IMG/VR virus record: IMGVR_UViG_3300045988_096839
Strand: one strand, 5' to 3'
Source: a virus
DNA length: 64,000 nucleotides
Of this stretch, positions 62,975 through 63,889 are shown in pieces. Numbering within the stretch: the first letter of the stretch is position 1; each line of letters starts with the position of its first letter. The notes beneath the pieces are model-generated. The model was not told where the DNA came from. It saw only the letters and a program-made list of their open reading frames with translations, and ran no database searches. The position numbers and the translations under genes are program-made.

Positions 62975-63008
62975 AAAAACTCCCAACCAATAAAGGAAGG
63001 GAGTTTTT
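62975..63008 (-). terminator. hairpin with T-tract between the tRNA pair and terL (weak terminator or attenuator candidate)
   Basis: aaaaactccc (62975-62984) pairs with gggagttttt (62999-63008) across a 14-nt loop. The core is a 5-bp GC stem with A/T extensions, and it sits 17 nt upstream of the terL ATG. Confidence 0.35.
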
Positions 63009-63091
63009 GTGAAAATATTTATTCTTAAAAATCTTAAAATTCATATGATGAAAGTTTTGATAACTTTTAAATTTTTTATTTTAACTTGTAG

Positions 63092-63159
63092 TTCCACAGG
63101 TTGGATTTGAACCAACATCACCGTTCCCTATGGACGTGACTTACTTAGTCGACTGTGGA
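63092..63159 (-). tRNA. degenerate tRNA-like element (68 nt, anticodon arm non-canonical)
   Basis: Minus-strand read: TCCACAG-TC-GACT-AAGTA-AGTC-A-CGTCCATAGGGAACG-GTGAT-GTTGG-TTCAAAT-CCAAC-CTGTGGA-A. It has a perfect 7-bp acceptor stem, a 4-bp D stem and a canonical T arm. The anticodon arm is only 15 nt (stem with a C:A mismatch, loop ATAGG), so no confident anticodon can be read. No encoded CCA. Confidence 0.5.
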
Positions 63160-63267
63160 TAATTAAGATTCCTATTTATTAAATTTTTTAATTGAAGAAA
63201 ATATGTTAAAATTTGAAATAGAAGGGGAATTGAATACCCCAAGTAAGTTTTTTTGTTTGTATTTAAT

Positions 63268-63342
63268 TGGTCCCCCCGCCACCGAATCGAACCCGGACTT
63301 AGAAGGTTAGAGCTTCTCGTGCTACCACTACACCACAGGGGA
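63268..63342 (-). tRNA. suppressor tRNA, anticodon CUA (reads UAG)
   Basis: Minus-strand read: TCCCCTG-TG-GTGT-AGTGGTA-GCAC-G-AGAAG-CTCTAAC-CTTCT-(AAGTC CGGGTTCGATTCGGTGG)-CGGGGGG-A-CCA. It has a 7-bp acceptor stem with two G:U pairs, U8, G10, A14, G18G19 and A21. The 5-bp anticodon stem AGAAG/CTTCT carries a 7-nt loop C-U-CUA-A-C with U33 and A37. The T region contains GGTTCGATTC, but I can only pair 3-4 bp, so the T arm is atypical. Confidence 0.75.
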
Positions 63343-63474
63343 ATTTCGGAGTTCTTTAAAGTCTACTCCGAAAAGACTTTTAAAACCAACCAATGTGTAA
63401 AACCGAGAGGTTAAATATTATGCTTAATCGTATCTCTTTGTTTATCGAACCGCACGAATAGAGTAAAACGAACA

Positions 63475-63741
63475 TTAATTTTTTTCTATTTCTAAAAGAT
63501 AATTCTTAAATGCTAATTCAACTTCTTTTGCTAGTTCAGAAATTATTTGATCTTTGGCTTTATTTATGTTTTCTTTCGAAATTGTTGTACCCAGATCAGC
63601 ATCAAATCTTTTATTTATTTTTAAATAAAGTGATCCATTTGTTGGACGTTCAATATTATTATCTATAATGAATCCAATAGCATGCCAAAATAAACATCCT
63701 TCAAAAGGTTTATCATTTCCTTTTATATTAGTTTCTTTCAT
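63475..63741 (-). CDS. hypothetical protein, 88 aa, no TAG
   Basis: Complete ATG..TAA ORF upstream of the tRNA pair. No family recognised. Confidence 0.55.
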   Translation of the reverse strand: MKETNIKGNDKPFEGCLFWHAIGFIIDNNIERPTNGSLYLKINKRFDADLGTTISKENINKAKDQIISELAKEVELAFKNYLLEIEKN

Positions 63742-63742
63742 A

Positions 63743-63889
63743 TTAAATACCTAATATACGTTTAAACCAATTCTTCTTAGGTAAACCAAGTTGTTTACGT
63801 GCATTCAAATCTGCTTCAATAGCAGCATTAACTTCCCAAACTGTAACGCAATTTGTCAAATCCAAAATATAAGTATCATTCTTTTTCAT
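63743..63889 (-). CDS. possible small protein, 48 aa, no TAG
   Basis: ATG 63887-63889 to TAA 63743-63745 (MKKNDTYILDLTNCVTVWEVNAAIEADLNARKQLGLPKKNWFKRILGI). The stop is 1 nt before the next ATG. Confidence 0.4.
   Translation of the reverse strand: MKKNDTYILDLTNCVTVWEVNAAIEADLNARKQLGLPKKNWFKRILGI

Follow-up and report, generated by a model that had tools for sequence, protein, structure and literature searches.

The boundary of TAG recoding coincides with an amber suppressor tRNA locus in the genome of a crAss-like gut phage

In the phage genome described here, the switch from genes that are free of TAG to genes in which TAG is a sense codon lies inside a single block of genes on one strand, and exactly at a transfer RNA (tRNA) locus that encodes an amber suppressor, tRNA(CUA). 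The genome is represented by a stretch of 64,000 nt (the window) from the IMG/VR record IMGVR_UViG_3300045988_096839, and the locus under study, at positions 62975-63889, is read along the minus strand and leads into terL. A first-pass annotation of the window had proposed that a boundary of the genetic code coincides with the tRNA locus, and that this layout is what would be expected if expression of the suppressor gated the translation of packaging, virion and lysis genes. The boundary is real and sharp over the 83.4 kb of the genome that were seen. As a whole, the observations are in our view best explained, with moderate confidence, by a late module in genetic code 15 that would be licensed by the tRNA(CUA) of the unit upstream of it, with this licensing contributing to the timing of late expression.

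The window has a G+C content of ~30%, and its minus strand holds nearly all of the genes. When only TAA and TGA are taken as stops, an unbroken minus-strand gene array extends from 62958 down to 2818, with in-frame TAG codons in most of the genes and with an open reading frame (ORF) of 5047 codons among them. The terL region shares 75-77% DNA identity with four genomes placed in the Suoliviridae by the International Committee on Taxonomy of Viruses (cr115_1, cr60_1, cr114_1 and cr125_1), the gene order of the late module agrees with that of cr60_1, and the Crass_capsid domain (PF23898) was detected on the capsid gene of the contig SRR8675875_490, which is identical to the window where compared. 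Because of the terL similarity, the gene order, the capsid domain and the ORF of 5047 amino acids, we assign the window to a gut crAss-like phage of the delta group, within the Crassvirales and the family Suoliviridae.

Sequence beyond the window was reached through exact-protein look-ups. With the 88-amino-acid ORF at 63475-63741 as query, the look-up led to contigs of 95-99 kb, the protein being listed in 185 blocks of a public assembly collection. The Logan contig SRR8675875_490 (97,444 bp) matches the window at 100% identity throughout the 5 kb that were compared, and a second look-up, made with the neighbor of the 90-amino-acid ORF at 63-335, returned this contig again, from the other side of the window; the exact look-up of the 90-amino-acid protein itself gave no match. 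Window and contig stretches together make up 83.4 kb of a circular genome of ~97.4 kb, and the counts given below for this genome refer to this part. For comparison within the family, 80 IMG/VR relatives were fetched with terL, and the complete genome of cr60_1 (NC_055891) was used; labels with L denote relatives, L001 being cr115_1.

Within the late block TAG accounts for 188 of 19,492 codons, which amounts to a share of 20.7% of the glutamine (Gln) codons, next to 556 CAA and 163 CAG. The recount for terL agrees with the first-pass annotation, which had given 14 sense TAGs, five of them within the first 115 codons: they make up 52% of the Gln codons of the gene and stand at codons 15, 22, 43, 93, 112 (counted from zero) and onward. 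Of the other conserved late genes, the portal gene has seven TAGs and the gene for the major capsid protein (MCP) has one. In terL and portal alignments with 64-69 distinct relatives, Gln prevails at the TAG columns, and several of the window's own TAG columns contain Q or TAG and nothing else. Because the TAG columns align with conserved Gln, TAG in the late module is, on this comparative evidence, a Gln codon (code 15).

The genes on the other side of the tRNA locus require more caution in their interpretation. The ORFs at 63743-63889 (whose protein has no PHROG match) and 63475-63741 together comprise 136 codons and are TAG-free as previously annotated, though with just two Gln codons; the probability of seeing no TAG in them is 0.63 when calculated per Gln codon and 0.27 when calculated per codon. 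Their lack of TAG is by itself expected by chance and proves nothing alone. The sole informative TAG-free part within the window is the plus-strand block at 63-2737, for which about 890 TAG-free codons had been claimed: its four ORFs comprise 894 codons with 25 Gln codons and no TAG (P = 0.003), given that the third gene starts at the ATG at 1218, just past a TAG at 1212-1214. The boundary gains its significance because the count was extended beyond the window to the identical contig. There, on the same strand upstream of the tRNA, 19 genes with 2299 codons contain 68 Gln codons and not one TAG, for which P is ~1e-7 at the late-gene rate of 20.7%. This upstream unit is ~7.5 kb long, starts at a divergent intergenic region, and includes DUF7399, Dam, ThyX, a dGTP diphosphohydrolase and small ORFs. 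The replication block, with 18 genes and 3849 codons, has 116 Gln codons of the CAA/CAG type and only two TAGs. These stand at codons 7 and 11 in ORFs called with a 5' end that overlaps the gene before, and are probably artifacts of the start calls. Neither the 19 upstream genes nor the 18 genes of the replication block use TAG as a stop codon. No credible in-frame TAG is found upstream of the tRNA in the ~83 of ~97.4 kb checked, and the second code boundary is the convergent terminus at 2737/2818.

The same partition recurs in the 80 relatives. That the apparent boundary should be a chance effect of short genes, as the two Gln codons of the adjacent ORFs would allow if taken alone, has next to no probability in view of this recurrence, the 68 TAG-free Gln codons upstream and the two probable artifacts beside 116 CAA/CAG codons. 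All 80 relatives have a recoded terL, and crude ORF calls yield 353 TAGs in 140,615 codons upstream (0.25%) versus 3200 in 268,617 downstream (1.19%). The complete genome of cr60_1 shows a similar division into late and non-late genes, which is less clean.

Of the tRNA pair proposed in the first-pass annotation, one member stands, a tRNA(CUA) recognized by both ARAGORN and Rfam (Table 1). It lies on the same strand as terL, 310 nt upstream, and has a cloverleaf with the 7-nt anticodon loop CUCUAAC; RefSeq Suoliviridae have its homolog upstream of terL, annotated there as "tRNA-Gln". The other member, at 63091-63159, is a degenerate element that falls below the ARAGORN default and has no Rfam tRNA match even at E<=10 in a search of 601 nt. 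It retains an intact acceptor stem and T arm but has a short D loop and a broken anticodon arm, with a C.A mismatch in the anticodon stem and an A at position 33. The T arm matches that of the methionine tRNA of cr60_1, tRNA-Met(CAT), and the element occupies the position of tRNA-Met in the relatives. L006, the next closest lineage, is without it, and the near-identical genome L090 has one further substitution that weakens the anticodon stem. It is best read as the remnant of a decaying tRNA-Met.

An ARAGORN-detectable tRNA(CUA) lies 0.2-2 kb upstream of terL on the same strand in 57 of the 80 relatives, and most of the loci without one have an intron-split or atypical CUA tRNA in the same place. 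In cr115_1 (~3437-3737), L040 and L027, anticodon positions 35 and 36 of the tRNA(CUA) are separated by an insert of 228 nt, which is preceded by U, ends in G, and, with a score below threshold (21.3 bits, E = 0.0026), aligns end to end with the group I intron model of Rfam. L013 (8484-9558), L047 and L051 carry an insert of 1002 nt at the same anticodon site. The split suppressors are therefore missed by standard tRNA finders and by RefSeq annotation. A further set of CUA tRNA-like genes, in L022 (5494-5570), L016, L021, L039, L042 and L070, lies 313-863 nt upstream of terL; their acceptor, D and anticodon arms are normal, their T arms are non-canonical, and ARAGORN does not detect them. These cases suggest that many of the "missing" suppressors in recoded Suoliviridae could be failures of detection. 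At the same locus, L012, L055, L057-L059 and L072 have a 91-nt tRNA(CUA) that is class II-like in its long variable arm and has A73. That TAG might specify another amino acid in these genomes was considered and ruled out, as their TAG columns still align with Gln. An extra tRNA-like gene of 103-105 nt is present between the pseudoknot described below and the suppressor in L002 (3487-3589), L022 (5382-5486) and similar genomes; in cr60_1 the extra gene scores 35.2 bits against the Rfam tRNA model.

Table 1. Coordinates of the features at the two code boundaries and of the adjoining gene blocks (positions in the window).
Feature	Position	Strand	Description
Late module	2818..62958	-	Code 15 (from alignment); packaging, capsid, tail, lysis and giant virion proteins; ~60 kb
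terL	60895..62958	-	687 codons; first TAG-containing gene
Terminator-like hairpin	62974..63008	-	AAAAACTCCC..GGGAGTTTTTT; T-tract ends 16 nt before terL ATG
Degenerate tRNA-like element	63091..63159	-	ARAGORN with relaxed scoring (-ps) only
Amber suppressor tRNA(CUA)	63268..63342	-	ARAGORN; Rfam tRNA 32.8 bits versus gathering score 29; encoded CCA end
H-type pseudoknot	63345..63380	-	2 nt before tRNA 5' end; covariation
Small ORF, 88 amino acids	63475..63741	-	No TAG; 1 Gln codon; last gene before tRNA locus
Small ORF, 48 amino acids	63743..63889	-	No TAG; 1 Gln codon; second-to-last gene of TAG-free upstream unit
Plus-strand block	63..2737	+	End of replication/recombination block (metallophosphoesterase, exonuclease); converges on late module
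Hairpin with T-tract	2743..2767	-	Convergent end of late module, other code boundary

Between the tRNA cluster and terL, the first-pass annotation had noted a hairpin with a T-tract that could make the proposed gate tunable by attenuation or read-through. The hairpin at 62975-63008 does fold (-17.6 kcal/mol for the centroid, z = -2.65) and is followed by T6; owing to two internal T.T mismatches it is overlooked by a simple terminator scanner. Intergenic hairpins on the late strand that are followed by at least five T number ~4 in the window (the pre-terL hairpin, 49167-49197, 33459-33481 and 2743-2767). The one at 49167-49197 on the minus strand is the strongest T-tract hairpin of the window (-22 kcal/mol, 13-bp stem) and stands 19 nt upstream of the next ATG, in a geometry like that of the pre-terL hairpin. 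The sequence of the latter (class A) is common to the window, L005 and L006. In 53 of the 80 relatives an unrelated hairpin (class B), GGGGTTCGTTGTGAAACGCGCCCC with a run of T after it, lies on the downstream side of the tRNA cluster. Its distance to the called terL start is 9-19 nt in direct cases, and insertion of an extra gene leaves it beside the tRNA cluster, at 187-756 nt from terL; its sequence, loop included, is conserved among lineages with diverged flanks.

Because two non-homologous T-tract hairpins occupy the same place, the pre-terL hairpin is probably an intrinsic terminator. As the 16 nt from the T-tract to the terL ATG leave no room for a promoter, the late promoter probably has to lie upstream of the hairpin and late transcripts would have to pass it. 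A role of the hairpin in attenuation or read-through is plausible. A sigma-70 promoter scan of 60000-64000 returned 16 matches versus 24.6 in shuffled sequence, and such a scan is uninformative for a phage of Bacteroidales. No promoter, antiterminator or qut-like site was identified at the locus, where an antitermination gate was not itself tested.

On the other side of the tRNA cluster, an H-type pseudoknot is formed by stem 1 (AAAGTCT/AGACTTT, 63374-63380 with 63358-63364) and stem 2 (TTCGGAG/CTCCGAA, 63366-63372 with 63345-63351), with an A-rich loop 3 (AAAGAA). In essentially all of the Suoliviridae relatives it precedes the first tRNA of the cluster by 1-8 nt (e.g., L006 ~9690-9728, L003 ~2425-2462), and in lineages with the extra tRNA-like gene it lies 5' of that gene and not of the suppressor. 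In the register required, 27 of 27 distinct upstream sequences form at least 5 bp of stem 1, versus 15% of shuffles. In a hand-registered alignment 95.8% of the cells pair, and the covariation score of 0.744 compares with 0.177 in shuffles, of which 0 of 500 attain it, and with at most 0.124 in a slid-partner control; five pairs of each stem show changes on both sides. Since the rows were aligned so as to fit the structure, the share of paired cells is in part circular, and the shuffle control and the number of distinct pair types provide the stronger evidence. The pairing and covariation figures derive from alignment A6, in which nine of ten rows are in register. MAFFT with RNAalifold over the region gave no structure, due to register shifts, and re-aligned N-padded sequences were unstable.

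The pseudoknot had no Rfam 15 match at E<=10 for the window locus or at E<=1 for the loci of six relatives. Permissive Rfam searches of these loci returned only tRNAs and the sub-threshold group I intron of cr115_1, with nothing for pseudoknot or hairpin. The loop motif TAGACTTTAAAGAA was also considered as a repeated promoter and rejected: it is unique in the 83 kb, and other matches have two mismatches and are almost all intragenic. The position of the pseudoknot fits a structure that would shield the upstream mRNA at its 3' end once RNase P has cleaved, or that would modulate the maturation of the suppressor. We tentatively suggest, as something possible rather than probable, that pseudoknot, tRNA(CUA) and hairpin form a code-switch cassette, in which the pseudoknot would control or couple the processing of the junction RNA and the cassette, in place of the tRNA by itself, would set the timing and strength of the code change.

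How the elements could act together can be outlined as follows. The tRNA(CUA) would most likely be transcribed as the 3' tail of the TAG-free upstream unit, because there is no terminator-like site between the ORF at 63475-63741 and the tRNA; a terminator scan and a hairpin survey found no T-tract hairpin there. Its transcription would precede that of the late genes. The unit would end at the terminator-like hairpin in front of terL. Hosts of the Suoliviridae group have been placed in the standard-code Bacteroidales (PMC7886860; 10.1101/2021.08.26.457843), and standard-code host ribosomes would stop at codon 16 of terL. Since TAG is read as Gln in the late genes, late proteins could not be completed without an amber suppressor; they would be finished only once tRNA(CUA) has been made and charged, and the module would in this sense be translationally licensed by the tRNA.

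The use of TAG within the late block is uneven, its share ranging from 0 to 100% of the Gln codons of a gene. At one extreme, all eight Gln codons of the gene at 32228-32698 (minus strand) are TAG, and the holin-like membrane protein encoded at 36909-37391 (minus strand) has TAG at codons 2, 7 and 21. TAG is enriched in the lysis-associated minus-strand genes 36909-37391, 33469-33933 and 32228-32698, and it is dense at the start of terL and in membrane proteins of the probable lysis region. This distribution is consistent with the published idea of lysis control, of which it is no independent proof. At the other extreme, the capsid gene and its neighbors (53689-55155, 55201-56361 and 49222-50208, minus strand) favor CAG over CAA and have 0-1 TAG, unlike other late genes; in the MCP gene TAG makes up 1 of 13 Gln codons. 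The codon use of the capsid region suggests that suppressor-dependent decoding is avoided in highly expressed genes. Two TAG-free genes of the late block encode homing endonucleases, of the HNH (34788-35471, minus strand) and GIY-YIG (52535-53617, minus strand) types, and their lack of TAG fits recent mobility.

Gating in the sense of timing by suppressor expression is a published hypothesis (Ivanova, Yutin, Borges, Pfennig). Of the layout that the first-pass annotation took to support it, the sharp partition, the tRNA at the junction and the reading of TAG as Gln stand, whereas a few non-late genes of cr60_1 do not conform. These and other observations weigh against licensing by the tRNA. In cr60_1, two genes that lie outside the late block, for a Holliday-junction resolvase and for a transcriptional regulator, have apparently sense TAGs, so that the boundary is not absolute across the family. 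The late block of the window includes seven TAG-free genes, the two endonucleases among them. The T stem of the window's suppressor is imperfect (a mismatch or bulge), which puts its efficiency in doubt. L072-L076 have no hairpin, and their tRNA-Met ends 16 nt before the terL ATG; tRNAs and terL are likely co-transcribed, at least there. Finally, cultured crAss-like phages already time late transcription via host RNA polymerase promoters (10.1101/2020.03.07.982082; PMC10136315), and a translational gate may be redundant because late transcription in these phages is already temporally controlled.

In a rival reading, constraint alone would account for the pattern: TAG would have been purged from early and middle genes, whose translation has to come before any phage tRNA is there, late genes would drift between CAA/CAG and TAG, with the suppressor by then available, and transcription alone would set the timing, while the position of the tRNA would be inherited synteny and the hairpin an ordinary insulating terminator. 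Judged from sequence, a gate and a tolerated by-product, brought about by the inability of early genes to use TAG, fit equally well. Constraint as the whole explanation draws on the patchiness of late TAG use, which is low where codon bias is that of highly expressed genes such as MCP, on the avoidance of TAG stops in early genes as well, which is the "dual-coded" pattern (10.1101/2022.06.29.495998), and on the late promoters documented in other crAss-like phages and read by the host polymerase (10.1101/2020.03.07.982082). It accounts less readily for a tRNA locus that sits exactly at the boundary in essentially all relatives although tRNA type, introns and neighboring homing endonucleases have turned over heavily, for the concentration of TAG at the very beginning of both terL and the holin-like gene, and for the preferential recoding of lysis-linked families reported by Borges et al. 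(10.1101/2021.08.26.457843). We regard it as a possible but somewhat doubtful account. In another arrangement, the tRNA cluster would be the 5' leader of the late transcript and not the tail of the upstream unit, so that every late mRNA would bring its own suppressor along, with the tRNA freed by RNase P and RNase Z and the hairpin serving as attenuator, processing site or stability element. The configuration of L072-L076 and the lack of room for a promoter downstream of the hairpin favor such a leader, as does the middle/late promoter motif found upstream of a tRNA gene in 12 of 14 beta-group crAss-like phages (10.1101/2020.03.07.982082). In the window, however, no promoter-like motif was identified between the ORF at 63475-63741 and the pseudoknot, and T-tract hairpins of two unrelated kinds stand between the tRNAs and terL, class A (window, L005 and L006) and class B (53 of the 80 relatives), which has the look of termination, so that we consider the leader arrangement unlikely. 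For the hairpin itself, a function at the level of DNA or protein binding could be envisaged, as a pac signal or the operator of a regulator in place of a terminator. Sites of the pac type often lie near terminase genes, and the class B sequence is conserved, its loop as well, while the flanks have diverged. Yet classes A and B share only their position and an architecture of stem and T-tract, which is the signature of an intrinsic terminator, and where extra genes have been inserted the hairpin keeps its place by the tRNA cluster and not by terL; such a site is very improbable.

Licensing of the late module by tRNA(CUA) has clear precedents in the literature. Yutin et al. (PMC7886860) described delta-group crAss-like phages in which TAG recoding is confined to late genes and goes along with suppressor tRNAs, and gating by stop-codon recoding of late or lytic genes is the model of Borges et al. 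(10.1101/2021.08.26.457843), in which Ivanova et al. are cited as preceding it. In the Mgcod survey of Pfennig, Lomsadze and Borodovsky (10.1101/2022.06.29.495998), the tRNA is concluded to be expressed before the recoded genes, and the early genes are described as "dual-coded". The partition, the suppressor and the position of the tRNA at the head of the recoded block are already published, and their finding here is a correct rediscovery.

The closest counterparts of the window are the TAG-recoded Suoliviridae (cr60_1, cr114_1 and cr125_1; PMC7886860), which agree with it in terL identity and gene order, in a "Gln"(CUA) tRNA with or without tRNA-Met directly upstream of terL, and in the use of TAG for Gln in late genes only. 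The window differs from them in the loss of a functional tRNA-Met, of which only the remnant is left, and in having the class A hairpin before terL; compared with cr60_1, the non-late genes of its genome are cleaner of TAG in the 83 kb seen. The Mgcod phages (10.1101/2022.06.29.495998) provide the general form of the association between tRNA and recoded block, whereas in the window the code switch is not at a strand switch, and ~7.5 kb of TAG-free genes (19 ORFs) precede the tRNA on the same strand. In the "code change module" of Jade phages (10.1101/2021.08.26.457843), too, late or lysis genes in the alternative code are immediately preceded by a standard-code suppressor tRNA, and the enrichment of TAG in lysis-associated genes is shared with the phages of the Borges model. 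In contrast to that module, the tRNA of the window is accompanied by neither a tRNA synthetase nor a release factor, and it precedes terL, a packaging gene, and not a lysis cassette.

Two further likenesses concern mechanism only. In phage lambda, late control involves a terminator upstream of the late operon, pR'-tR', with antitermination by Q. The window is similar in that a terminator-like hairpin stands immediately before the first late gene and leaves no space for a promoter in between, so that late expression would need read-through; it differs in that no antiterminator, promoter or qut-like site was identified and in that tRNA genes lie inside the terminated segment. The other likeness, a speculative one, is with the 3'-end module of MALAT1 and MEN-beta (PMC6379651), where a triple-helical structure directly precedes a tRNA-like substrate of RNase P. 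In the phages, a compact structure with an A-rich strand stands 1-8 nt before the presumed RNase P cleavage site, and cleavage would leave it as a protected 3' end on the RNA upstream. Here, however, the genome is that of a bacterial virus, and the structure is an H-type pseudoknot and not a U-A-U triplex element for nuclear expression (ENE).

Beyond the locus itself, the relatives record further changes. The terL product measures 1060 amino acids in L087 and L089 and 1406 amino acids in L090 and L092, the terL genes of near-identical genomes (flanks 98-99%) differing by one or two inteins. Insertions in thyX differ as well, with ThyX of 441-798 amino acids in L088-L092. These differences show very recent turnover of mobile elements. 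Past the right end of the window, L088 (1-1864) has 1.8 kb without called genes that adjoin the divergent promoter region and contain a tRNA-like sequence on the opposite strand, and in relatives the far end of the upstream flank bears a leucine tRNA, tRNA-Leu(TAA), likewise encoded on the opposite strand.

In the literature searched, we did not find the pseudoknot or the T-tract hairpin between tRNA cluster and terL, nor intron-split or T-arm-aberrant suppressors as a cause of "missing" suppressor tRNAs; these candidate elements appear to merit follow-up. Stop-codon recoding confined to late genes ranks among the more striking traits of abundant phages of the human gut. The locus described here establishes no new principle, but it provides a clean and fully resolved example in which the switch occurs inside a single strand block at the tRNA. 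The RNA elements around this tRNA, together with the intron-split or atypical suppressors of relatives, could explain why 25-60% of recoded genomes seem to be without a suppressor, and could show how the supply of the tRNA is coupled to late expression.

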